From NCBI GenBank assembly GCA_015064345.1, contig SVSK01000006.1, positions 1 through 56,574 of the forward strand: a stretch of 56,574 bases of DNA, in the 5' to 3' direction. This stretch comes from Oscillospiraceae bacterium. Its GTDB lineage: Bacteria; Bacillota; Clostridia; Oscillospirales; CAG-272. A program made the position numbers and the translations under genes. The notes under the pieces were generated by a model that was not told where the DNA came from, searched no databases, and saw only the letters and a program-made list of their open reading frames with translations. Position 1 is the first letter of the stretch. Every line of letters starts with the position of its first letter. Positions 9,615 to 32,685 of the stretch are shown here, piece by piece.

Positions 9615-9645
9615 AAAAAGCCCTACTGAAAAGTAAGGCTTTTTT
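9615..9645. repeat. Repeat family B hairpin / bidirectional terminator, copy 1
   Basis: AAAAAGCCCTAC-TGAAAA-GTAAGGCTTTTTT between convergent genes. Confidence 0.8.
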
Positions 9646-19024: not shown

Positions 19025-19861
19025 ATGATGAACAACAAAATAGGCGTTCAGGTAAACTTCAGCAAGGGTGTTAACCTTACCGCATCCTTCAAGAATGTTA
19101 TAGAAATGGATATCACATCCTGCCAGCTTTGTATCTGGGATGAATCTATGCTCACAAAGGAATATGCGGACCAGGTAAACGAAGCTGTTGCGGCAACAGG
19201 TATTGAGATCACAACGGTTTGGGCAGGCTGGGACGGTCCCTGCGAATGGAACTTCACCGACGGTCCCGCAACGATCGGACTTGTTCCTCCCGCATACAGA
19301 TATTCCCGTCTCTGTGCGCTGAAGAAGGCGTCAGAATTTGCGAGAATGATCGGAGTAAAGAAGGTGGTAACTCACGTTGGCTTCATTCCCGAAAATCCCG
19401 ATGATCCCAACTTCACAGGCACAGTTGCCGCTCTCCGCGATCTTTGCAGATTCATGAGCGAACGCGAGCAGTATTTCCTCTTTGAAACAGGTCAGGAAAC
19501 TCCCGTTACCATGCTCCGCACCATTCAGGCCATCGGCATGGACAACGTAGGCATCAACTTTGATACCGCCAACCTCATCCTCTACGGAAAGGCAAACACC
19601 CTCGACGCACTGGACGTTTTCGGTCAGTACGTTATGGAAACACACATCAAGGACGGTCTTTACCCCACAGACGGCATGCAGCTTGGAGCTGAAACTCCCG
19701 CAGGTCAGGGCAAGGCAAATCTCCCTGCCGTTATCAAAAAACTTGGCGAGCTGGGCTACACAGGCACACTCACCATCGAGCGCGAGATCACAGGCGACCA
19801 GCAGAAGAAGGACATTGCCATGGCAAGAGACCTCCTCAAGCAGTGGATGGCAGAAGCGTAA
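19025..19861 (+). CDS. Sugar phosphate isomerase/epimerase (TIM barrel)
   Basis: THVGFIPE, FETGQE, INFDTANL..YG, HIKDG, LTIERE; GAGG RBS. Confidence 0.9.
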   Translation: MMNNKIGVQVNFSKGVNLTASFKNVIEMDITSCQLCIWDESMLTKEYADQVNEAVAATGIEITTVWAGWDGPCEWNFTDGPATIGLVPPAYRYSRLCALKKASEFARMIGVKKVVTHVGFIPENPDDPNFTGTVAALRDLCRFMSEREQYFLFETGQETPVTMLRTIQAIGMDNVGINFDTANLILYGKANTLDALDVFGQYVMETHIKDGLYPTDGMQLGAETPAGQGKANLPAVIKKLGELGYTGTLTIEREITGDQQKKDIAMARDLLKQWMAEA

Positions 19862-19871
19862 AAGAAGAAAT

Positions 19872-19905
19872 AACAAAAGCCTTACTTCATCGGTAGGGCT
19901 TTGTT
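19872..19905 (+). repeat. Repeat family B hairpin/terminator, copy 2 (inverted relative to the others)
   Basis: AACAAAAGCCTTAC-TTCATCG-GTAGGGCTTTGTT. Confidence 0.8.
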
Positions 19906-19946
19906 TGAAAAAATCTGATTTTTCACATATTTTTCTCTTTTTTTGC

Positions 19947-19972
19947 GGAACAAATCCGATAGTTCATTCGTC
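19947..19972 (+). promoter_or_regulatory. Putative ECF sigma promoter
   Basis: GGAAC-17 nt-CGTC upstream of the lipoprotein gene; same motif at 34160-34184. Confidence 0.55.
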
Positions 19973-20024
19973 TAATAGTATGTATATAAGCAGTCAACCA
20001 TCAAAGAATTGGAAAGGAGCCGTT

Positions 20025-21950
20025 ATGCGCAGATCAGTTTTATGTTTGTTCGTTTTAGTCACAGTACTATTCACACTTGCAGGCTGCAATAAAGGGCCCT
20101 CCCCACAAGGCTCACCTGATGCAACAGAAGAGAGTGTAGACACTATACTCCCGTCCCCTCCGCCCGAAACGGATGATACACCCGACGCACGACCCGAAAC
20201 GGAAGATGTTCCAAATACGCCACCCGAACCGAGTCTGCCACTCATACACGAGGCTAAAGTGTCGGTCCTTCCCCATGGAACAGAAGCAGCACAGATGCAC
20301 GCTTGGTTCTCAGGCGCTGAAGCTAATTATTTCTTCTATGAGTCCGGCAAGGAAAATATGGAATTCTACCGTGTCCAAAATTTATACTCCAGAGATGAGT
20401 ATATTGAAAAGCTCACTCTTACCCTACCCAACGGCTACTATGGCGGCAGTATCGTCAGAGCAGATACCACAAGCGGTGGGTACGAGAGTGACGGGATCAG
20501 ATTTATCGTAAGTGCTACGCATAACGGAGGGCAGGTATATCTCAATTACACTCTTTCTGCAGACAAGGCATCGGGATATTACGTTCTCACCTCCGTGAGC
20601 GAGACTACTGAAGAAGAATTCACACCTACTCTTGGAGACCGTACGCTAGAATTTGTAGCACACAGCCTGTACACGCAAGTAGGAGCAACTGTGTCACTAT
20701 CTGTTCCCGCGTATTGGGAGATAGGTTATTATGGAAGCGGCAATGGCTATATCCAGGAGGAAGATGTTCTGAACATTCTGCCATATGACACCACAATAAA
20801 GCGTTCTCTCTTTAATACCGTAGATACAGATTTTGACGCAATGTTGGCAGAACTGAGCAACGATACCTATTCTATCGGCGATACAGTCATTTCGGGCACT
20901 ACCGTATCGGGATACGAATACAAGGGCGTCTCTGTTGATATGCACAAGGCGTACAGGCACATCTTCCGCATTACCACAGAACGGGAGATATACAATTTTG
21001 AGGTATGGGAGTGGCCCGCATACGATGAGGGAATAGACTTCCTCACCGACGTTGTTATTCCCGTAGTTGAGTCGTTCTCTGTGGAATACCACGAGGAAGA
21101 AGCAATTACCGATATTGCCGACTGGGACAGTCTCCCTTGGGTGGAAGAGCCCCGCGCTGATGGAAAACGCGCTCAGAATATATACAATTTTATTTACGAT
21201 ATGGTAAGCGGCGAGTCAAAGTATCCCGAAATTAACGGTCTCGGAATAAGAAACTATTCAATCACTCTCCTTGAGAATGCCTCTCACGAATCTACCGTCC
21301 GTTTCACATTCACCGTAACAGGCAACTCTCTTCCACAAACTCTACCGCCCGGAACGCACACGAAAATCATTTCCGTCGTAATGTACATGAATCTGTACGA
21401 TAATAAAAAGCCTGAGACACAGGAAGAATATACTGCAGCCGACAATATACAGCGCGGGCTTGACAAATACGGAGACATTCCTGCTGTTTTGGCTCTGCAC
21501 AAATATCTCTGTTTCCCAAACATGGATGAGATCCCCGACCACGGAGATTGGCCTTCAGACACTTACAGCATCCCATACCCTTATATTTGCGCGTACTACG
21601 GAAACAAAAACCTTGAAATAAGCTTCGATCTGCTACAGCAGCTTTTACTTGAAAAATTCGGTATTTCCGTTGAAAGACCCGATGACGGCGCCCACTTATA
21701 CAGCTGCGAATACAATAAAGAGACTGATACTGTCAGATACTCCGACACTCGCGGATATAATTCAACCCACCGTTTTGTGGATGTAACAGAATCCGACGGC
21801 ATTACCTACGTTACCGTTCAGTTCTACGCAGATGACTTTTATCTCATCCCGTCTTATAAGATAGTTTACAAAATAGGCGAGGGAGACATATTCCTCGGAT
21901 GTGAGGTGCTCGAAACGGGAAACTACAAACCGCACTCAATCGGCTGGTAA
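20025..21950 (+). CDS. Hypothetical lipoprotein with Pro/Thr/Glu-rich linker
   Basis: AAGGAG RBS before ATG 20025; MRRSVLCLFVLVTVLFTLAGC lipobox; no family recognised. Confidence 0.85.
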   Translation: MRRSVLCLFVLVTVLFTLAGCNKGPSPQGSPDATEESVDTILPSPPPETDDTPDARPETEDVPNTPPEPSLPLIHEAKVSVLPHGTEAAQMHAWFSGAEANYFFYESGKENMEFYRVQNLYSRDEYIEKLTLTLPNGYYGGSIVRADTTSGGYESDGIRFIVSATHNGGQVYLNYTLSADKASGYYVLTSVSETTEEEFTPTLGDRTLEFVAHSLYTQVGATVSLSVPAYWEIGYYGSGNGYIQEEDVLNILPYDTTIKRSLFNTVDTDFDAMLAELSNDTYSIGDTVISGTTVSGYEYKGVSVDMHKAYRHIFRITTEREIYNFEVWEWPAYDEGIDFLTDVVIPVVESFSVEYHEEEAITDIADWDSLPWVEEPRADGKRAQNIYNFIYDMVSGESKYPEINGLGIRNYSITLLENASHESTVRFTFTVTGNSLPQTLPPGTHTKIISVVMYMNLYDNKKPETQEEYTAADNIQRGLDKYGDIPAVLALHKYLCFPNMDEIPDHGDWPSDTYSIPYPYICAYYGNKNLEISFDLLQQLLLEKFGISVERPDDGAHLYSCEYNKETDTVRYSDTRGYNSTHRFVDVTESDGITYVTVQFYADDFYLIPSYKIVYKIGEGDIFLGCEVLETGNYKPHSIGW

Positions 21951-21998: not shown

Positions 21999-23969
21999 TT
22001 ATTCTTCTCTGATGTGGTAATACATGGACGGGTACGCCTGACCAACGGTGAAGCGGAGGATTCCGTCCTCGTAGGTAGTGGGAAGCGCGCCTATGTAGAA
22101 GCCCTCTGCACTTACCGCCCATACTCTCATGGTGGGGCAGGATGTGCGGATCTCGATATCAGCCTCGATAACCTCAACGGTAATGGGAGCATTTCCGTAT
22201 TCCAGCATCAGGTCTCCGTCAAACTTTGCGTCCGTGTTCTTTGCTCTGCCTACGGTTGTGAGAAGCATGTTGTCGCACTTGTCTATGGGCTCGTCGGACA
22301 GGGATGAGAGCGCAACTACCGCAAAGTCAGTCTTGCCCTCTACAGAAAGGCCGTCGATCTCGATCTTGCCGTTCTTCTCAAGGAAGCCGTAGATGCACTT
22401 TGACTTGGGTGTGTCGATAGTGCCGTAGTTCTTGTCCCAGTTGCGGTACATCTCGCCTGTGTCGGAGCGAACCTCCTTCTTTGAGAGATCCACGAGAGCG
22501 GTCTTCTCGTCGATCACGCGGTCTGCGGTACTTTCACCCTCGTCATATTCCATGCCGATCTTCGTGTACTCGGACACAGCGGAAAGTTCATCAAAGGGGC
22601 AGGTGTTCATGGTCAGCGCCTTCATTGCTGTGGTGTTTGGAGATTCCTTTACGTCTCCGCGGCGGGTCATAAGTGCGGCATGATAGAAGAGACCGAACTT
22701 TGCGGGGTCGTTCCATGTGGAGAAGATACCCTCTCTGTAACCGGTGCCGCCGATTGATTCCGCGCTGATCTCCTTGCCGAGCATCTTCATGTTCTCAAGA
22801 TGTGAGGAGTAGGCGTATGTGTGAATTGCAAATCCCGACCAGCCCTGAAGCAGTCCCGCCGCCGCAAAAAGAACGGGAGACTCCGCTCTGTATTCGTTGG
22901 GCCAGGGCATATCCCACTCGGAGCAGAACATGGGTCTGCCGAAGGATCTTGCCGCCGCCATGTGATGGAGGAATCCGTCGGGTGCCTGTGTGAGTGCGGT
23001 GTTGAGGAATCGCTGGTCCCCCGGATTCCAACGCCAATCGTAGAAGTAGAAGTGGCTGTCGTTGAAGTCGCACACGTTGTTGGGCTTTCTCTGCTCATTT
23101 GTAACTGCCCAGTTTGTGCCGCAGATGGGAATTTTCACCCCGATCTCACGGAGGCAGTTGATCATATCAAGGTAATGATCCTCTTGCAGCTTCACGCGGA
23201 AAGCGGACTGGATGGGATCGTTAAAATCGTTGATATCACAGGTTGCGGCGTCAATGTCAGCACCTGTTTCCTTTGCCCACTCTGCTAAAAGTCCGCGGTA
23301 GATGGTAACGTAAGGCTCGATGTCGATCTTGTAAATGGAGAAGTCGCTCTCATTTACGATCTCCGCCATAACGATTGCAGGCTCGTCCTTGTACGCCACG
23401 CCTGTGAACTCGTTAACGTGATTCCACAAGTCTCTTGCAAGCTCCTTTTGAAGTTCAACGATGCGAGGGGCGAAGTAGTTGTAAGGCTTGCTGCCGTCCT
23501 TCAGAAGAAAAGCATTCTCAACCTCATCCCCTGTCTTGAACTTGCGGTAGGTGTACATATCCATGTAGGTATAGATACCCTCTTCCTTGAGGCAGTAGAT
23601 GAGATAGTCAAGCCGTCTCATGCTCTCGGGGTCAAAGGTCTGTGTGTTCTTATGGTGAGGTCCTTTAGTGAACTGGAAAATGTTCGGGGTCGCCCACTCT
23701 GCGTCAAGCTGATGAAGTCTTACAATGTTGCAGCCGATCTTTGCAAGTCGCTTGGCGAATTTTTCCGCGTAATCGTAGTCAGGGAAGTTGTGGCCGCTGT
23801 TTACGTTAGTACCCCAGAAGCGGGCAACGGTGCCATCCTCGAACACGAATCTGTCACCGTCCGCTTTAAGAAAACCGTGCTTGCCCGCAGGCTTTTCGTC
23901 TTCAAAAATAAAGCTTATGTCAAAAGGTGCGTCGTATGGATCAGCGGGAAAAGGTATGTATCTTGACAT
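21999..23969 (-). CDS. Clan GH-A glycoside hydrolase (GH5/GH148-like), cytoplasmic
   Basis: PAGKHGFL..FWGTN..GCNIVRLHQLD, YKDEPAI..EIVNE (acid/base), DSHFY, CSEW (nucleophile); no signal peptide. Confidence 0.75.
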   Translation of the reverse strand: MSRYIPFPADPYDAPFDISFIFEDEKPAGKHGFLKADGDRFVFEDGTVARFWGTNVNSGHNFPDYDYAEKFAKRLAKIGCNIVRLHQLDAEWATPNIFQFTKGPHHKNTQTFDPESMRRLDYLIYCLKEEGIYTYMDMYTYRKFKTGDEVENAFLLKDGSKPYNYFAPRIVELQKELARDLWNHVNEFTGVAYKDEPAIVMAEIVNESDFSIYKIDIEPYVTIYRGLLAEWAKETGADIDAATCDINDFNDPIQSAFRVKLQEDHYLDMINCLREIGVKIPICGTNWAVTNEQRKPNNVCDFNDSHFYFYDWRWNPGDQRFLNTALTQAPDGFLHHMAAARSFGRPMFCSEWDMPWPNEYRAESPVLFAAAGLLQGWSGFAIHTYAYSSHLENMKMLGKEISAESIGGTGYREGIFSTWNDPAKFGLFYHAALMTRRGDVKESPNTTAMKALTMNTCPFDELSAVSEYTKIGMEYDEGESTADRVIDEKTALVDLSKKEVRSDTGEMYRNWDKNYGTIDTPKSKCIYGFLEKNGKIEIDGLSVEGKTDFAVVALSSLSDEPIDKCDNMLLTTVGRAKNTDAKFDGDLMLEYGNAPITVEVIEADIEIRTSCPTMRVWAVSAEGFYIGALPTTYEDGILRFTVGQAYPSMYYHIREE

Positions 23970-23986
23970 TGTTCTGCTCCTATATA

Positions 23987-25384
23987 TTATTTCTTGATTA
24001 TTTCACGTACTGCGGCAATACTTTCTCGAACCAGTACCTCACCTGCGTCAGCTCCGCTCTGACACGCGAAAATCACTGCGCTGTAGCCGCCTCGCTTCAT
24101 GGCATCAGGGGTCGGGAGGTAGTTGAGGTCGTCGTCCGTCATCTGCACGTCCAGCACATGAGCTTCGGGGCACGCGGCCTTGATTCTGTCGGCATACTCA
24201 ACAAACAGCTCATAGGGATTGGAAATGAGCACAGTCTTACCCATTCTGAGAAGATGCACCGCACCGTCAACGATCTTGCGTCCGCGTCTCTGTCTGCCGA
24301 TTATGGTGTCAGCACTGCACAGCTCAAACACATCCGTACCGTCGGTTTCCTCGAAGATGATAAGCTCGCCTTCGCTCTTGCCGTACTTTTTCTCCAGTGC
24401 CGCCATGTCAAGGGTAGCTTTCTCGTATTCTTCATCGGTGGGATTCCAGATAGGCAGATCCACGTGCTTAACAAAGTGATAAGCCTCGCCCTCGTTTCGG
24501 TATAGAGGCGCATCCTTTAAGGCGACGATCTCTCGGCCTATCTTCTCGCCCAGATCGCGGCAGCCCTCTTCTTCCCACATGCTGACTTCCCCCGGTATCG
24601 TGGAGAGAAGATCGCGTGGAGAAAGGTCGCCAGCCGAGCCGGAAAGCGAAACAAGCGGGATGTTCCCGATGTGCTTTTCCATGTAGTCACGGGTATATCC
24701 CCAGAAGTCGGAGGAGATCACGCACTGATTCTCAATAACCTGCGCGGGACAGGGTACGTTTGCCACGATGCCTTTGAGCTCACCGTCAGTCGCCCGTTTT
24801 GCGTAGATAATGCTCATTGGACCGCCGTCATGGTTTTCCATTTTGAGAAAGTTTGCCTCATGAGTCGAGCCGTACATCACAGCGTAGCCTTCCTTGTACA
24901 CTGTGCGGCGGGAGTAAGAGGTCATGATTCTCGATACAGCCACCTCGGTATAGCACTCCTCCATCGATTCGGTCGCCTGCTTTACCGCATCCGCGATACT
25001 GTCTGCAACGAAAAGCGCGTATTCCTCAGGGGTGGTCAAGTCATCGTACAGCTTTTCCTCCGCCTTGAAGGAGCAAAGCATGCACTCCTGCTCACGTCCT
25101 ACGTAAGGTGCTGTGTGAGTGTGAGTAGCGGAGATTGCGATATCGTCATGGGTGAATCCGGGCACAAAAGCCGCAATCCTTTCCGCAGCCATCTGTGGCA
25201 CGGGAGGCATAATGTGAAGCAGGTCCACCGACGCCCAGACAGTTATCCTGCCCTCCGTCTCTATTGCCATGGCTGTGGTATATATTCTCGAATGTATTTT
25301 TTCGGCTATTCTGACGTTGAACTGTCCCTGCAGCGCTACCTTGCCCGCGGGAGTAATGTCCGCCTTTCCGAATCCTATCTTCAT
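23987..25384 (-). CDS. Neutral/alkaline ceramidase-fold metallo-amidohydrolase-like protein
   Basis: IGFGKADITP, SATHTHTAP, ISSDFWG, GSAGDLSP, ELFVEY, YLPT..GGYS; GGAGG RBS before ATG 25384. Confidence 0.7.
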   Translation of the reverse strand: MKIGFGKADITPAGKVALQGQFNVRIAEKIHSRIYTTAMAIETEGRITVWASVDLLHIMPPVPQMAAERIAAFVPGFTHDDIAISATHTHTAPYVGREQECMLCSFKAEEKLYDDLTTPEEYALFVADSIADAVKQATESMEECYTEVAVSRIMTSYSRRTVYKEGYAVMYGSTHEANFLKMENHDGGPMSIIYAKRATDGELKGIVANVPCPAQVIENQCVISSDFWGYTRDYMEKHIGNIPLVSLSGSAGDLSPRDLLSTIPGEVSMWEEEGCRDLGEKIGREIVALKDAPLYRNEGEAYHFVKHVDLPIWNPTDEEYEKATLDMAALEKKYGKSEGELIIFEETDGTDVFELCSADTIIGRQRRGRKIVDGAVHLLRMGKTVLISNPYELFVEYADRIKAACPEAHVLDVQMTDDDLNYLPTPDAMKRGGYSAVIFACQSGADAGEVLVRESIAAVREIIKK

Positions 25385-25488
25385 AGTGACCTCCGCATCA
25401 AAATTTACCACTTAAACTATACAACAACACACCGCGTTAAGTCAAGTATTTTGCGAAAAAATGCACGTTGTATCTTCTCTCAAACACC

Positions 25489-25517
25489 TTGACATCAATG
25501 TTCTGTTTTAGTAAAAT
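25489..25517 (+). promoter_or_regulatory. sigmaA-type promoter
   Basis: TTGACA-17 nt-TAAAAT. Confidence 0.6.
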
Positions 25518-25551
25518 AGAGTCAACCACTTACTCATCCGGAGGTAAAACT

Positions 25552-26880
25552 ATGACAGATATCATCTTCACCTTTGATACAGAAGACTATGTCAACGAAA
25601 AAGGTGCCGACGGAATAATCAGAGCATCAAAAATGATACGAGAAGCGGGATTCACGCCGTGTCACAATATTGTTGGTTGGCTTGCAGAGGCTCTTGTGAA
25701 GTGGGGCAGACAGGACTGCATCGACGAGCTTAAGCAGTGCGAGATACATACCCACTCTCTGAAGCACTCATACCACCCCACAATTAACGAATATACGGAT
25801 ATCGAGGACTTTGACAAGGCAATGAAACACTTCCGCCGCGAAGAGGACGAGTGTTTTGACATAATCCGTCGAATACTCGGTGAGCATCGTATATCAGCCG
25901 CATCCCCGCCCGGAGTATCGGACTCTTATGTGGCGCTGTACGGATACGCCGACATGGGAGTTGAAATTTTCGAAGGCGGACTTACAAACGATACTGTTCG
26001 TTCAAGACCCGTATCCTTCTGCAACCTTTGGAATATTTTGCTCGAGTGCTGTTATGATAATTTCGGCAAATGCTCAAAGGATGACGTTCTGGGGCTTATC
26101 GAAAAAATGGCAAAGCTTGAGGTGTGCATATGTCTCCACCATCCCCAGATGCACGTTGTCACCTCATTTACCGACAGGCAGAATTTCTACAAGGAAAATG
26201 CCGAGGGTGAGTGGGTCAAGAGTGAGCTGTGCTCCGAGGAGGATGTTAAGCGCTTTGAAGAAAATCTCCGTTTCTTCCTCGAAAAGATAAAATCAGACGA
26301 TCGCTTCAATGTGACAACATATGATGCTCTTGCGGATAAGCTTCGCTCTCACAGAGTTGTTACTCGTGATATGATACCCGAGTTAAAGCAGGCACTCACC
26401 GATGACTTTTTCCCCGTAACTGTTCCCGAATCACTGTGTATCAGCGATATTCTTCTTGCCTGCCGCGACTTTTTGCTCGGAAAAGATGAACACGTATGCG
26501 AAAAGGTCTATGGATTCCTCGACGTTCCTTACGCCATCCCCCACCCCGTCAAGGTTACAGCGGAGGAAATGCGCGAGTCCGCAACACAGATACCGGACGG
26601 CACTTTCCTACCTACAGAAATAACCGTGGGTGGTAAAAAGCTGGGACCTGCCGACTGGCTCCGCGCCGCACTTGCCATTCTCTCCGGCGAGGAAGCGTTC
26701 ACAGTTGTTCCCGACAAATGGCAGATAGATCTGAACGAATTCCCCACTCTGCGCAATCAGCGCCTTGCCGGCTGGTGGATACATTCAGACTCCTTTAAGG
26801 ATGAATATATCTCCGACAGATGCCGTCTCCAGAGCTGGACAATCCGCCTGCCCAAAGGCACAAAGAGAAGGATTTACTAA
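25552..26880 (+). CDS. Polysaccharide deacetylase-like (NodB/CE4-fold) protein
   Basis: IIFTFDTED, EIHTHSLKH metal motif, CLHHP; GGAGG RBS before ATG 25552. Confidence 0.7.
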   Translation: MTDIIFTFDTEDYVNEKGADGIIRASKMIREAGFTPCHNIVGWLAEALVKWGRQDCIDELKQCEIHTHSLKHSYHPTINEYTDIEDFDKAMKHFRREEDECFDIIRRILGEHRISAASPPGVSDSYVALYGYADMGVEIFEGGLTNDTVRSRPVSFCNLWNILLECCYDNFGKCSKDDVLGLIEKMAKLEVCICLHHPQMHVVTSFTDRQNFYKENAEGEWVKSELCSEEDVKRFEENLRFFLEKIKSDDRFNVTTYDALADKLRSHRVVTRDMIPELKQALTDDFFPVTVPESLCISDILLACRDFLLGKDEHVCEKVYGFLDVPYAIPHPVKVTAEEMRESATQIPDGTFLPTEITVGGKKLGPADWLRAALAILSGEEAFTVVPDKWQIDLNEFPTLRNQRLAGWWIHSDSFKDEYISDRCRLQSWTIRLPKGTKRRIY

Positions 26881-26886
26881 AATAAT

Positions 26887-26918
26887 AAAAAAGCCCTACC
26901 GACCAAGGTAAGGCTTTT
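26887..26918. repeat. Repeat family B hairpin / bidirectional terminator, copy 4
   Basis: AAAAAAGCCCTAC-CGACCAAG-GTAAGGCTTTT. Confidence 0.8.
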
Positions 26919-26922
26919 ATCT

Positions 26923-27714
26923 TTATCTTGCATATATCATACCGACGAGTCGGTTTATGAGAGAATTCGGAAGTATGCGCTTGAGGAGTCCCAGAAGCTG
27001 ATAGGAAAAGCCGAGAACGTACTGCGGCTTGACCCGCTTTTTCAGCACGATTTTGGCAATCATTTTGCCGGCCCTCTCAGAACTCATTCCGTTCTGTTCA
27101 TCTCTCTCCATTACGGCAACGCTTCGGCTGATCCTGCCCCCGTATATATCGTCTCCCATGTCTGATTTCGCCCTTGCCGCTGTAAATCCTGTTTTTATGT
27201 CTCCCGGAAGCACGGCGCACACCGAAATACCGAATGGGCGAACCTCATTGGCGAGAGCGGCGGAATATGCATCGATCGCCGCCTTTGACGCAGAGTAGTA
27301 GGTCTGAAACGGTATCGGGAACAGAGCCGCAACAGAGCTGATGTTCACTATCCGTCCACCGCCTGCCTTCCGCATATGGGGAAGCACCGCCCGCGACATA
27401 TTATCCACTCCCATGAACAAGACGCCAATCTGCTTCTTCACGTCAGAGGGATCTGTAAATTCAACCGCGCCCGATATGCCGAATCCCGCGCAGTTTATGA
27501 GTACGTCAACTCTGCCCTCCCGTGAGATGACCTCATTTACCGCGTCAAGAACAGAGTTCTCGCATGTCACGTCAAGGGTCAGATGCACTATCCCGTCAAT
27601 TTGGCTTTCTCTGCGGCTTCCCTCGTAGACGGTGCATCCGAGGTCTCGCAGTGCAATGGCAGTCGCTTTGCCAATGCCGGAGCTGCCGCCTGTTATAAAT
27701 ACGATCTTTTTCAT
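26923..27714 (-). CDS. Short-chain dehydrogenase/reductase; candidate 3-ketosphinganine reductase
   Basis: TGGSSGIG, basic SRR after beta2 (NADPH preference), INCAG, NISS, YSASK, PGDIKTGFT; ATG lies 2 nt after the stop of the upstream SPT-like gene. Confidence 0.85.
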   Translation of the reverse strand: MKKIVFITGGSSGIGKATAIALRDLGCTVYEGSRRESQIDGIVHLTLDVTCENSVLDAVNEVISREGRVDVLINCAGFGISGAVEFTDPSDVKKQIGVLFMGVDNMSRAVLPHMRKAGGGRIVNISSVAALFPIPFQTYYSASKAAIDAYSAALANEVRPFGISVCAVLPGDIKTGFTAARAKSDMGDDIYGGRISRSVAVMERDEQNGMSSERAGKMIAKIVLKKRVKPQYVLGFSYQLLGLLKRILPNSLINRLVGMIYAR

Positions 27715-27716
27715 GA

Positions 27717-28904
27717 TCACAGGCAAATGGGAGCGTCGATGGTTGCGGCAATAATGTCCGATGCCTCATCGATAAGCTCTCTCGTATGTGTTGCCATGCA
27801 GGTTGCGCGGAGCAGGCACTCTCCCTCTGGACAAGCGGGTGTGATAACGGGGTTAAGATACACTCCTGCCTCGTAGATCATACGGGCACGGATAAAGGTG
27901 TTTTCTTCGGAATATGTGTAGATGGGAACAATGGGGGTGTCCGCATCAATGATCTTCACGTTGCGGTCATGCAGGCATTTTCTGAAGTATGCACTGATGT
28001 CGGAGAGGTTCTTCACGATCTCGGGATGCTTCTTCAGGTGGCGAAGTGCTGCCAATGCAGTAGCCGCTGAGGCAGGTGTGATGGATGCTGAGAAGATAAA
28101 CGGTCTGGAGACGTGCTTAACATATTCCACAACCTCACGGGATGCTGCCATATAGCCGCCGAGGGATGCAAGGGATTTTGAGAATGTTCCCATATAAATG
28201 TCAACCTGATCCTCAAGGCCGAAGTGACTTGCCGTGCCGCGTCCGCCGTCTCCTATAACGCCGAGAGCGTGTGCGTCGTCAACCATGACCCTCGCGCCGT
28301 ATTTTTTCGCAAGAGCGCATATCTCGGGAAGCTTTGCGATGTCGCCGCCCATGGAGAATACGCCGTCGGTTACGATAAGACATCCTCTTGTGTCGGGCAC
28401 CTTTTGAAGCATGCGTTCAAGATCCTCCATGTCGGAGTGCTTGTACATCAGCAGCTTACCGAATCCCAGGCGGCAGCCGTCGTAAATGGATGCGTGGTTC
28501 TCTCTGTCGCAGATAACGTAATCGTGGATGCCCACAAGCGCGCTGATGATACCGAGGTTGGACTGAAATCCCGTGGAGAAGGTCATTACCGCTTCCTTGC
28601 GGAGAAATTCTGCCAGCTCTGCCTCAAGCTCAAGATGCATCTGAAGTGTACCGTTAAGGAAACGCGAGCCCGAACAGCCTGTGCCGTACTGCTCGATGGC
28701 CTTGATTCCCGCTTCCATGATCTCGGGATTGGTGGTAAGGCCAAGATAATTGTTTGAGCCGAGCATAATGCGGCGCTTGCCTTCCATTATTACCTCAACA
28801 TCCTGTCTGGTCTCAAGGGCGTGAAAGTACGGATATATTCCCTTTTCCTTTGCTTCGTCAACACGTGAACGCTTTGTGCACTTCTCAAAAATGTCTCTCG
28901 CCAT
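27717..28904 (-). CDS. spt: PLP-dependent alpha-oxoamine synthase, serine palmitoyltransferase-like
   Basis: GIYPYF, GSNNYLGLT, YGTGCSGSRFLNGT, STGFQSNLG, NHAS, DGVFSM, VDDAH, MGTFSKS (PLP Lys), FIFSAS. From memory this resembles Bacteroidetes SPT more than BioF or Kbl. Family is certain; substrate is inferred. Confidence 0.75.
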   Translation of the reverse strand: MARDIFEKCTKRSRVDEAKEKGIYPYFHALETRQDVEVIMEGKRRIMLGSNNYLGLTTNPEIMEAGIKAIEQYGTGCSGSRFLNGTLQMHLELEAELAEFLRKEAVMTFSTGFQSNLGIISALVGIHDYVICDRENHASIYDGCRLGFGKLLMYKHSDMEDLERMLQKVPDTRGCLIVTDGVFSMGGDIAKLPEICALAKKYGARVMVDDAHALGVIGDGGRGTASHFGLEDQVDIYMGTFSKSLASLGGYMAASREVVEYVKHVSRPFIFSASITPASAATALAALRHLKKHPEIVKNLSDISAYFRKCLHDRNVKIIDADTPIVPIYTYSEENTFIRARMIYEAGVYLNPVITPACPEGECLLRATCMATHTRELIDEASDIIAATIDAPICL

Positions 28905-28953
28905 AATATGTCTCCTGACTGATTATTATTGATTTGTCAACCATTTCAAGTCC

Positions 28954-28982
28954 ATTTTACTCAAATACCCAACTAAAGTCAA
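28954..28982 (-). promoter_or_regulatory. sigmaA-type promoter of the spt-SDR operon
   Basis: TTGACT-17 nt-TAAAAT, about 50 nt upstream of the ATG, which has an AGGAG RBS. Confidence 0.6.
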
Positions 28983-29046: not shown

Positions 29047-29076
29047 AAAAAAGCCCTACTGTAAAGTAAGGCTTTT
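29047..29076 (-). repeat. Repeat family B hairpin/terminator, copy 5
   Basis: AAAAAAGCCCTAC-TGTAAA-GTAAGGCTTTT, 3 nt after the YwaF-like stop. Confidence 0.8.
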
Positions 29077-29079
29077 GGT

Positions 29080-29784
29080 TTACTTGTTTTTTCTTTCTGC
29101 AATAATAAACGGCAAATGGAACAGTGATATTATCGCCACACCGAGAGCCACGAGACGCAGGAAATAGGCGTACCAGCCTGCGTTCAAATTCAGATACGGC
29201 AGGTTTTCCATGGGTGGGCGCACGAGATACATGAAATTGGTATCGTAGACCGAGAGCACGCTGTTGACGTAGATCATTGCCAGTACAAGTGCAAGAAGAA
29301 TTACGAGATTTCTGCCGTAGGTCCTAAGCCCCGGGTTTGCCTTTTTCGTTGCGATGAGGTACAGGGCAAACCACATGAGTCCCGCGTGGTAAACAAAGCA
29401 TTGGTACGGGCCGAGCTTTGCAAAATCCGTTCCGTTTGTGGGAATGAGCAGAGCGCAAAGGCTTCCGAGCACTCCCGCAACCGCGAGAAAATCGATAACG
29501 GTCTGTTTCAAGCGTCCTTCTTTACCAAAGGTGACAAACAGCACGGTGAACAATAGGAGACTGCACAGATGAAACGGCAATGATCCCGGGTCAAGGTGCA
29601 TACCGCCGTCATCGCTCTCCGTCATGTCGCCCATTATCTTGCTGATCTCACTGAACGCGCAGATAACTGTCATTATGTACCCCGAGGTCTTCAGTGAGAG
29701 CTTTCTCTTAATGCTGAATATCAGCATGCAGGTGACAAACGCGGCTGACAACCCGAGCCAGATAAAGTGATCCGATGTAAACAT
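29080..29784 (-). CDS. YwaF/TIGR02206 (TMEM164-like) integral membrane protein
   Basis: MF..H, LPFHLCS, FVYHAGL, N....TNFMYL..PP motifs; 6-7 TMs. Confidence 0.8.
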   Translation of the reverse strand: MFTSDHFIWLGLSAAFVTCMLIFSIKRKLSLKTSGYIMTVICAFSEISKIMGDMTESDDGGMHLDPGSLPFHLCSLLLFTVLFVTFGKEGRLKQTVIDFLAVAGVLGSLCALLIPTNGTDFAKLGPYQCFVYHAGLMWFALYLIATKKANPGLRTYGRNLVILLALVLAMIYVNSVLSVYDTNFMYLVRPPMENLPYLNLNAGWYAYFLRLVALGVAIISLFHLPFIIAERKNK

Positions 29785-31287: not shown

Positions 31288-32685
31288 TTATTTGTTTTTA
31301 TTTTTGGTTTTTCTCTTTTTGAAGATGAAGCTTCTGAAGAGAATAATGTTCATTACCGCAAAGAACACCACAAAGATGATGAATGTTAAGATCGGCTTTG
31401 TGGGAGCAAGAGTTGCAAGGAACATCATGGGGAAGCCGAATACGATTGCGGGGAAGTTCTGGTAAACCAGGTTATCCGATGCGGGGGTCTTGAATTCGCC
31501 GTCCACCTCGCGAAGCAGGATGATACCTGTACTTGCAGTACCTGTGAGCATACCGAACATTGCAAGGAACTGCTCCTCGGCATAATCCTTGAAAAGTGTA
31601 GCCGCCACGATTCGGTTGTAGATGTATGTCACGATAAGTCCCGCAACACCGAGGATGAGGATAATGCCCCAGTAGTTCTCGAGGATGTCAAGACGGATTG
31701 CCGCGATACCTGCAACGACCATGATATCGAAGAAGAAGTTGCACGCGCGGGTCATAAGGAAGTTGTTGGTGTACTTTTTCTTGATGATGTTCTTCTTTCT
31801 GAGGAAGTTCATCACTACCTTGATAACTGTAGCGGAAAGAACACCGAGGAGGAAGTTAAAGCCGTAAATAACGGACTTCATGCCGGGAAGAAGATTTCCG
31901 AGGAGCATCATAAGCAGGTACGCGCCGATGTACGCCACGATAATAAGGGCGATCTGAACGGTCATCTTGTCGATGCTTTCCTGCATTGGAATCTCACCTT
32001 CAGAGTCAACCTCTTCTGTGTAGGTGCTGCCGTCTGCTCTGGTGGATTTTTTGAGAGTGCCGCGCTTTTTGCAAATGTTAAGGTGAATTACGCCGCCGAT
32101 ACTTGCGGAAAGGAAGCCAAGGGCCGCGATTGTAGGTCCGAAGCTCTTACCGCCGTCAAAGCCGAATTCCGTTTCGTAAATTGTGCCGTAGTTCAGTGCC
32201 TGACCGGTGCCCTGTCCGTAACCGAAAGGAAGAAGTACACCTGCCGCAGAGAAGAAATCTTTAAGAACCAATGCCGCGATCATTGTGATTCCGAATCCGA
32301 AGATCGCCTGAAGCAGGTAGGTTGAAACTGTTGTAACACCTGTGTTGAAGATCTCCGCGGTACGCTGCTTTGTGAGCTTGCCACCTGTTGTCTTGAACGC
32401 AGAGGCGATAAATCCAAGTGCCAGAGTGTGGTATGTAATGATTTCGAGAGTTGCCATGCCCTTGCCGCCGAATGCCGCGGTATTGAACATAACATCTCCC
32501 GTTATTGCTTTATATACAGCCGCCACGCCTACAAGCAGAAGACCTGCAAGTACGGATGTGGGTATGAGTGAGTTTCTGAGGAGGGGGATACTCTTCTTGA
32601 TTACGTTCGCGACGAGAAGGCTGCCGAGAAGTACACCGAAAAGGAATATCCATCCCCAAACACTAAAGTCCCAAAAATTTGCCAT
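31288..32685 (-). CDS. Sodium/glutamate symporter (GltS/ESS)-like membrane protein
   Basis: IPTSVLAG, GYGQGTGQA re-entrant loop, FGMLTGTASTG; about 12 hydrophobic segments. Confidence 0.8.
   Translation of the reverse strand: MANFWDFSVWGWIFLFGVLLGSLLVANVIKKSIPLLRNSLIPTSVLAGLLLVGVAAVYKAITGDVMFNTAAFGGKGMATLEIITYHTLALGFIASAFKTTGGKLTKQRTAEIFNTGVTTVSTYLLQAIFGFGITMIAALVLKDFFSAAGVLLPFGYGQGTGQALNYGTIYETEFGFDGGKSFGPTIAALGFLSASIGGVIHLNICKKRGTLKKSTRADGSTYTEEVDSEGEIPMQESIDKMTVQIALIIVAYIGAYLLMMLLGNLLPGMKSVIYGFNFLLGVLSATVIKVVMNFLRKKNIIKKKYTNNFLMTRACNFFFDIMVVAGIAAIRLDILENYWGIILILGVAGLIVTYIYNRIVAATLFKDYAEEQFLAMFGMLTGTASTGIILLREVDGEFKTPASDNLVYQNFPAIVFGFPMMFLATLAPTKPILTFIIFVVFFAVMNIILFRSFIFKKRKTKNKNK

Follow-up and report, generated by a model that had tools for sequence, protein, structure and literature searches.

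A candidate sphingoid-base operon of a serine palmitoyltransferase-like synthase and a KdsR-like reductase in an Oscillospiraceae genome and other Clostridia

The window analyzed here, a stretch of 56,574 nucleotides, is an entire contig (C14) of a 2.02-Mb bin of a gut Oscillospiraceae bacterium that comprises 84 contigs and is 79% complete and 1.25% contaminated. Its minus strand carries a compact operon encoding an alpha-oxoamine synthase that resembles serine palmitoyltransferase (SPT) and a classical short-chain dehydrogenase/reductase (SDR) that resembles KdsR. Going by the affinities of the two proteins, the operon probably makes a sphinganine-type long-chain base.

The synthase gene (27717..28904, minus strand; 395 aa) starts with an ATG at 28904, 6 nt behind a ribosome-binding site that we read from the sequence (AGGAGA, 28911..28916, minus strand), and ends with a TGA at 27719..27717. 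Its product matched PF00155, NF047600, and the PDB structures 3a2b and 8guh. The gap between this stop codon and the ATG of the SDR gene at 27714 is 2 nt. The SDR (26923..27714, minus strand) is 263 aa long when counted from this ATG and matched PF00106 and NF049977. The list of open reading frames (ORFs) also holds an overlapping TTG at 27726 as an alternative start; the alignment to the KdsR model begins at the residue of the ATG form. Upstream of the pair, a sigma-70-like sequence (TTGACT-17-TAAAAT, 28954..28982, minus strand) agrees with the consensus at 10 of 12 positions and is a candidate promoter by pattern match alone. Downstream, the operon ends in a hairpin with a T-run that resembles an intrinsic terminator (26889..26918, minus strand; 12 pairs, 5 of them G-C, and a loop of 6). 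This layout of promoter, synthase, 2-nt gap, SDR and terminator had been described in an earlier note on this DNA, and it was borne out by our reading of the sequence. A scan of 2.6 kb gave 7 promoter-like sites, compared to 2.6 ± 1.5 in shuffled sequences, and 2 terminator-like sites, compared to 2.3 ± 1.7, a count that taken alone is not over chance. A second hairpin (29050..29075, no strand assigned), which shares a motif family with the downstream terminator, lies between the operon promoter and a gene for a TMEM164-like protein. Since this hairpin ends the upstream gene, the SPT-SDR pair forms a separate unit, bracketed by two hairpins.

The tetranucleotide profile of the contig correlated with that of the rest of the bin at 0.964, which placed it at rank 23 of the 40 contigs of at least 20 kb, the least similar being counted first. 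The GC content was 0.485 in the window, 0.472 in the genome and 0.523 in the operon, and the contig also encodes Rnf and DegV. Its composition is typical of the bin, and the contig appears free of chimerism and of a Bacteroidota origin.

Family affinity and active site of the synthase

All the motifs quoted for the synthase in the earlier note (YPYF, GTGCSGSRFLNGT, STGFQSNLG, GTFSKS and FIFSAS) are present in the translation, as are those quoted for the SDR. The match to Aminotran_1_2 (PF00155, 184.7 bits), the GTFSKS motif and the His/Asp/His cofactor residues place the protein in the alpha-oxoamine synthase superfamily, that is, in fold type I of the enzymes that depend on pyridoxal 5'-phosphate (PLP). 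The PLP lysine of GTFSKS is query residue 243, and all 121 members of the clade keep His137, Asp209 and His212. The synthase stands alone, its 395 aa being free of any fused domain.

We then compared the synthase to the NCBIfam models of the superfamily. The top model was NF047600, which describes the Bacteroidota-type SPT (529.7 bits over positions 2-387 of 395; cut-off, 640), 138 bits ahead of the next one. It was followed by TIGR01825 of the BioF/Kbl family (391 bits; cut-off, 535.4), Kbl (388.7 bits; cut-off, 460), the beta-proteobacterial SPT (384 bits; cut-off, 500), bioF (367.9 bits; cut-off, 426), the alpha-proteobacterial SPT (318 bits; cut-off, 670), ALAS (271 bits; cut-off, 339) and the CqsA type (187 bits; cut-off, 428). 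The PDB gave the same order, the top relative being the Sphingobacterium multivorum SPT (SmSPT; 3a2b and 8guh), which aligned without gaps over 378 residues at 422 bits. Sphingomonas SPT reached about 280 bits, Kbl and BioF structures at most 270 bits, cysteate acyltransferase (CFAT) structures 236 bits (28eh) and 231 bits (7u7h), and CAI-1 synthase structures 98 bits.

A HMMER search against 1.84 billion cluster representatives returned 6013 proteins at an E value of ≤1e-30. Twenty proteins, 19 of the listed representatives and P0329, were scanned against NCBIfam. For the closest representatives scanned (P0122-P0145), NF047600 was the best model, with scores under its cut-off, and P0329, a Marinoscillum protein named serine palmitoyltransferase at NCBI, exceeded this cut-off at 645 bits. 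P0195 and P0212 exceeded the bioF cut-off and P0228 those of Kbl and TIGR01825. A quick IQ-TREE run (LG+C20) was made on 41 rows spanning the clades, with six NCBIfam-verified BioF/Kbl rows as root; about 100 other representatives stayed outside this tree, and its rows included no characterized CFAT, ALAS, or alpha- or beta-proteobacterial SPT. The synthase and nine relatives formed one clade with 100% SH-aLRT support, and P0122, a metagenome protein, was the sister of this clade (95%). Both fell inside an SPT-like group (99%) together with ten Bacteroidota rows (99%), P0329 among them. A FastTree of 138 rows agreed with this picture.

The alternatives to a sphinganine-type product that we weighed under the label ALTERNATIVES were BioF/Kbl, cysteate, another amino acid and a dedicated small molecule. 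Under the first of these, the pair would be a housekeeping one, the synthase being BioF or Kbl and the SDR either unrelated to it or a threonine-dehydrogenase-like partner. Such a role would suit the sole alpha-oxoamine synthase found in the 79%-complete genome, and the public names of its relatives are generic ones, "aminotransferase class I/II" or "8-amino-7-oxononanoate synthase." However, the bioF, Kbl and TIGR01825 models scored 138 to 162 bits below the SPT model, each under its own cut-off, and the tree split the clade from the verified BioF/Kbl rows at 99%. In addition, models for bioA, bioD and tdh had no match in the whole 79%-complete genome, and the bioB model had one weak match (84 bits; cut-off, 225). 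No bio, tdh or hem gene was present among the 16 neighboring proteins scanned, from 17.4 to 40.5 kb, as the earlier note had observed. Finally, the alpha-oxoamine synthases in a sample of 151 genomes of the window's own family fell into two classes, one in 9 genomes (the window's included) at 476 to 540 bits and a separate one in 15 genomes at 313 to 350 bits, and one genome (G016) has both. Models, structures and tree are all in good agreement with the earlier proposal that the synthase is SPT-like and not BioF or Kbl, and we consider a housekeeping role very improbable.

Twenty-four SmSPT positions were compared to the synthase, one of which, an arginine, we presumed to lie at query residue 366 and flagged as uncertain. 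The other 23 are named around the PLP/serine moiety in the S. multivorum paper (PMC10196870, here and below as far as its available text goes), the numbering of which equals the query numbering plus 1. Twenty-two of the 24 residues are identical in the synthase, and each of these is kept in 119 to 121 of the 121 clade members. The SmSPT residues that touch the serine moiety directly or via water, namely Asn52, Gly80, Ser81, His138, Ser243 and Lys244 (PMC10196870), are kept in 120 to 121 of the 121. The two differences are fixed: Ser53 is replaced by Asn and Ala79 by Ser in 121 of 121 members. Met271 of SmSPT corresponds to an Ile in the synthase, and Ile is also found in 118 of 120 Bacteroidota relatives.

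These positions bear on the question of whether the same chemistry could use another amino acid and yield a deoxy-type base from alanine or glycine (1-deoxysphinganine-like) or from some other small amino acid. SmSPT turns over alanine, glycine and homoserine (PMC10196870), and the fixed Asn lies next to Asn52 and Tyr54 of the substrate network. The Ser at the Ala79 position points in the same direction, as do the separation of the clade from the verified SPTs and its score under the cut-off. On the other hand, the residues that contact serine are kept almost throughout the clade, and 28 of the 120 Bacteroidota relatives likewise have a Ser in place of Ala79. We consider a deoxy-type product unlikely.

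The active site also speaks to capnine, which the earlier note had offered as an alternative. In such a sulfonolipid route, a cysteate acyltransferase and a 3-ketocapnine reductase would lead to capnine; fold and reaction type are the same, and KdsR-like SDRs can reduce 3-ketocapnine (PMC11211663, in the sections available). SulA's active site and that of SPT are reported to differ solely in Lys281, which replaces an alanine of SPT (PMC9304779, in part), and the CFAT counterpart of this lysine is Lys280 (PMC13692747, in part). The corresponding residue, query 273, is Ala in 121 of 121 members, so the synthase lacks the lysine that distinguishes a cysteate acyltransferase. Together with the scores of the CFAT structures, 231 to 236 bits compared to 422 bits for SPT, this disfavors capnine, to which we assign only a minimal likelihood.

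The reductase and its linkage to the synthase across Clostridia

The second protein matched PF00106 at 148.9 bits, and its translation contains the motifs TGGSSGIG, SRR, NCAG, NISS, YSASK and PGDIKTGFT. We take the SRR after the second strand to indicate a preference for NADPH. NF049977, the KdsR model, was the best of 217 matching NCBIfam models, with 259.5 bits over 2-267 of its 267 positions. The runner-up, a generic oxidoreductase subfamily, scored 209 bits. In the PDB, the SDR matched generic SDRs at no more than 97 bits, and an atlas search returned generic SDR clusters alone. TGGSSGIG, NISS and YSASK correspond to the classical-SDR features used for BT_0972, that is, Gly-x-x-x-Gly-x-Gly and Ser/Tyr-x-x-x-Lys (PMC9278070, cited here and below from its available sections). 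The best model being KdsR, the resemblance to a BT_0972-type reductase that the earlier note had suggested was recovered by our comparison. The assignment is weak when taken from the score alone, and it is therefore the linkage with SPT that carries the weight.

To describe this linkage, we used the best 80 of 165 related loci, with one genome per species and 68 to 92% identity. In 66 of the 80, the gene directly downstream of SPT, with the same orientation, is the SDR. Among the remaining 14, one SDR is partial at a contig end, three loci are cut off at most 350 bases from SPT, and ten are without the SDR. Five genomes of these ten were tested for a KdsR-like SDR elsewhere, and four carry one (205 to 235 bits). 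The titles of 78 of the 80 loci name Bacillota/Clostridia-type organisms, the two others (L036 and L065) being labeled just "bacterium." Clostridia, Oscillospiraceae, Eubacteriales, Ruminococcus, Acutalibacteraceae, Faecousia, Vescimonas, Oscillibacter and other Bacillota-type labels are represented, and they include one Lachnospiraceae and one Anaerovibrio. Most of the 80 loci come from metagenome-assembled genomes (MAGs) of rumen or gut. Carriers with closed or near-closed genomes also exist: G412 and G513 consist of one contig each, and L050 lies on a 1.2-Mb contig that has no MAG label. These labels are in agreement with the typical composition of our contig and uphold its taxonomic placement.

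Within the sample of the window's own family, a KdsR-like SDR was found in 8 of the 9 genomes with the SPT class, in G019, and in 8 of 141 of the remainder. The SPT class is absent from both of the other genomes that share the window's genus. In G019 (G019:C25:5384-7405), the SPT-class gene is in two pieces with two in-frame TGA codons, beside an intact KdsR-like SDR; this reflects either decay of the pair in this genome or an error in sequencing. In the same family, two further genomes that are without the SPT class (G021:C15:20779-26587 and G127:C102:961-5028) carry a KdsR-like SDR of 210 and 248 bits, respectively, about 2 to 4 kb from an alpha-oxoamine synthase domain (313 to 318 bits) that is part of a fused multidomain frame about 1090 aa long. 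This fused form, which several representatives in the HMMER listing resemble at about 1100 aa, may be a second route to a reduced amino-ketone lipid.

We extended the analysis to 399 scored Clostridia genomes from 217 genera and to 14 control genomes, setting the threshold for a KdsR-like SDR at ≥192 bits; the counts in this sample and in that of the family include related, non-independent genomes. SPT-class genes were present in 54 of the 399 genomes and 27 of the 217 genera (456 to 597 bits), and Bacteroides thetaiotaomicron was the only one of the 14 controls with a match at the SPT-class threshold. A KdsR-like SDR was found in 57 of the 399 genomes, the top score being 312.8 bits, under the cut-off of 400. 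Its distribution followed that of SPT: 45 of the 54 SPT-class genomes have one, compared to 12 of the 345 without SPT. The two genes adjoin in 32 of these 45 genomes, in 21 cases divergently, in 7 with SPT followed by the SDR, and in 4 with the SDR followed by SPT. That adjacency is kept through three arrangements is good evidence that both proteins act together.

Clostridia are monoderm and are not as a rule named as sphingolipid producers, and the earlier note had regarded the pair as occurring in an unexpected lineage. The Clostridia carrier stands, but it is not an isolated oddity, the pair being widespread in this class. One family (f27) is near saturation, with the SPT class in 13 of 14 genomes. 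Three genomes of another family (G238, G296 and G505 of f50), which are 99 to 100% complete at about 1.0 to 1.1 Mb, retain an SPT-class gene (535 to 564 bits), and two of the three also keep the KdsR-like SDR. This suggests that the SPT product matters to these reduced organisms.

This distribution has to be weighed against the idea that the product is a specialized small molecule rather than a membrane base, such as an amino-alcohol or alpha-hydroxyketone with a signaling or antimicrobial function, for which a medium-chain acyl donor would be used as by CqsA or LqsA. The module has just two genes, near which neither acyltransferase nor head-group genes are conserved; it is patchy in its own family, being found in 9 of 151 genomes and in neither of the two same-genus ones; and 8 of the 80 loci have a MarR-family regulator directly upstream; all these features would be in keeping with such a molecule. 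In contrast, the CqsA-type model and the CAI-1 synthase structures scored 187 and 98 bits, compared to 530 and 422 bits for SPT, and the near saturation of f27 and the retention of the gene in genomes of about 1 Mb are better explained by a core role in the membrane than by an accessory signal. A dedicated small molecule seems to us quite unlikely.

Proposed pathway and relation to known systems

We thus favor a sphinganine-type long-chain base as the product of the operon. The synthase would be a soluble, PLP-dependent enzyme of the SPT type that joins a long-chain acyl thioester, in a Clostridium probably an acyl-acyl carrier protein (acyl-ACP), to an amino acid, for which L-serine is the likeliest candidate. 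The condensation would release CO2 and give a 3-keto long-chain base of the 3-ketodihydrosphingosine type. The NADPH-type classical SDR would then reduce the 3-keto group to produce a sphinganine-type 2-amino-1,3-diol, and this base would either stay free or be further acylated by other enzymes.

Several findings weigh against this interpretation. Both proteins fall under the equivalog cut-offs of their best models, the synthase at 529.7 compared to 640 bits and the SDR at 259.5 compared to 400 bits, and none of the 54 SPT-class matches in Clostridia reaches the cut-off of NF047600, the top one scoring 596.7 bits. The synthase is 43 to 51% identical to the sampled Cytophagales-type Bacteroidota relatives of SPT, and its clade does not nest among the Bacteroidota SPTs, the forks between the clades being without support. 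The pocket-adjacent change of Ser53 to Asn is a fixed difference of the clade, SmSPT itself accepts alanine, glycine and homoserine, although poorly (PMC10196870), and the sequence does not reveal the amino-acid specificity of the synthase. Promiscuity is a trait of this type of SDR, and 3-ketocapnine is reduced by several unrelated ones (PMC11211663, in the sections available). The pairing is also incomplete: 9 of the 54 SPT-class genomes are without a KdsR-like SDR at the threshold, and 12 of the 345 others have the SDR alone. Finally, the 80 and 17 loci compared show no conserved third gene next to the pair, be it an acyltransferase, an ACP, a kinase or a head-group enzyme.

Compared to the Bacteroidota SPTs (NF047600; SmSPT, 3A2B/8GUH; BT_0870), the synthase is alike in fold, length, the GTFSKS motif, the ungapped alignment and 22 of 24 compared positions. 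It differs in its score under the cut-off, its separate and strongly supported clade, the fixed Asn at position 53, and its Clostridia hosts. Furthermore, the Clostridia SPT gene usually adjoins the reductase gene, whereas the locus tags of BT_0870 and BT_0972 are about 100 apart. BT_0972 is a 3-ketodihydrosphingosine reductase by demonstrated activity, and both it and BT_0870 have been expressed in E. coli (PMC9278070). Our SDR is similar to this enzyme (NF049977) in class, length, end-to-end alignment, the Gly-rich NADPH motif and the catalytic Ser/Tyr-x-x-x-Lys; unlike BT_0972, it scores under the KdsR cut-off, 50 bits above the generic model, is encoded beside the synthase, and has a predicted activity. 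The Caulobacter ceramide pathway (Spt, bCerS and CerR) starts with an SPT-type condensation, as the operon would, but the 3-keto base is acylated first and reduced by CerR afterwards (PMC11087976, in the text available). Since the conserved partner in Clostridia is a KdsR-like SDR, the order would be to reduce first, as in eukaryotes and Bacteroides and unlike in Caulobacter. SulA and CFAT (PDB 7U7H and 28EH) share superfamily, fold and reaction type with the synthase, which is without their distinguishing lysine, and BioF and Kbl share the superfamily and set themselves apart by score, tree and the biotin and tdh partners not found here.

Our topical searches of the literature turned up no description of SPT or of sphingolipid synthesis in Oscillospiraceae or other Clostridia; Firmicutes homologues could be listed in the supplementary organism tables of two papers (PMC9278070 and PMC11211663). 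Both enzymes belong to a known kind, and the novelty lies in the lineage, in the form of the operon and in the breadth that the pair appears to have. Because the scores are under the cut-offs, the NCBI rules for SPT and KdsR exclude the Clostridia proteins. The SPT-class gene is found in about 1 in 7 of the sampled Clostridia genomes (54/399) and is near-universal in some families. If these pairs make long-chain bases, then present annotation cut-offs hide a Clostridia producer group, equating faecal sphingolipid capacity with Bacteroidota abundance misses it, and the membrane role of sphingoid lipids in single-membrane anaerobes becomes testable.

A broader hypothesis, which we put forward tentatively and hold to be somewhat short of an even chance, is that many gut and rumen Clostridia, including Oscillospirales-type families and organisms with genomes of about 1 Mb, make sphingoid bases with an SPT/KdsR lineage of their own. 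It is conceivable that the base remains free or that it is N-acylated by an enzyme with no relation to the ceramide synthases known so far, a new fate that we propose on the grounds that the pair is not accompanied by any known partner gene. The sphingolipids of gut bacteria influence the immunity and the lipid metabolism of the host and are attributed to Bacteroidota (PMC10865984 and PMC9278070, in the parts available). Were the broader hypothesis true, host-active sphingolipid precursors in the gut would not come from Bacteroidota alone, and what becomes of the base would be new biology.

Neighboring genes and other features of the window

To look for a third gene, we clustered the proteins of the 80 loci with the core genes masked and then those of 16 loci of other families and the window. 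The recurrent genes were SPT, the SDR and, in a minority, the MarR regulator, and nothing else. The latter, of about 146 aa (PF12802, 39.2 bits), is encoded on the strand of SPT, ends 3 to 18 nt ahead of the start of SPT and makes a three-gene unit, as in L053:619-1077, which was checked against Pfam; it is absent from the window's operon. The conserved module thus consists of two genes, and to judge from these loci the user of the base would be encoded elsewhere. PF13444 and TIGR03694, taken as ceramide-synthase probes, had no match in the genome, nor in the Caulobacter control, and are invalid as probes.

The window itself has several lipid-related neighbors. A TMEM164/TP0381-family integral membrane acyltransferase (29080..29784, minus strand; PF14808, 87.2 bits) is encoded directly upstream of the operon, from which the hairpin separates it. 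We rejected it as a pathway partner, as it is present in 1 of the 9 SPT-class genomes and 30 of the 151 overall. On the other side, the N-terminal half of a ceramidase-like protein (23987..25411, minus strand) matched the neutral/alkaline ceramidase family PF04734 at 41.6 bits, over the cut-off, and beside it, within 21999..25411 (minus strand), lies a gene for a GH5-like protein (PF00150, 21.6 bits, under the cut-off). These two genes near the pair hint at sphingolipid breakdown. The ceramidase-like gene was likewise rejected as a partner, being found in 2 of the 9 SPT-class genomes and in 12 of the 151. Overall, neither the TMEM164-like, ceramidase-like and GH5-like genes nor those for an FAD protein, a PlsC-like protein and DegV travel with the pair in the 80 loci, and the lipid-related neighbors do not accompany it in the 16 loci of other families either. 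With an 18-kb DNA query, the same-genus genome G049 matched over the FAD gene only, at 71% identity, from which gain or loss of the locus is not readable.

Several ORFs of the window call for caution. Those on the plus strand at 28224..28757 and 27341..27628, and others antisense to the pair, are by-products of coding-strand composition; antisense ORFs of this sort misled the longest-ORF gene caller in related loci. Three ORFs of 470, 796 and 465 aa (25468..26880, plus strand; 19560..21950, plus strand; and 31288..32685, minus strand) had no Pfam match at an E value of ≤0.01. Judged by eye, the 465-aa one resembles a multi-pass membrane protein. The frame of 796 aa, which shares sequence with an overlapping xylose-isomerase-like TIM-barrel ORF, is possibly not real over its full length.

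Long pieces of the stretch recur at ≥99% in contigs of gut metagenomes from no fewer than three other studies, the run labels of which include goat gut. A metatranscriptome run contained a 157-nt contig identical to 28035..28191 and a 32-nt piece; we did not count this as a sign of transcription, as such libraries may contain DNA.

The hairpins that bracket the operon belong to a family of the form AAAGCCTTAC, 4 to 14 nt, GTAGGGCTTT, which reads alike on both strands. Copies of about 26 to 28 nt each start at window positions 9617, 19876, 21965, 26890 and 29050; these five intergenic spots fall within a 20-kb section of the contig, one further copy is located on C38:625, and there is none elsewhere in the 2-Mb bin. 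They may be local bidirectional terminators or a small repeat element. They also account for a joint seen in one goat-gut contig, where the sequence goes back by 2160, with a 31-letter side and 13 letters that fit both sides: we rejected a circle or a duplication at this place, because the two similar flanking hairpins explain the joint.

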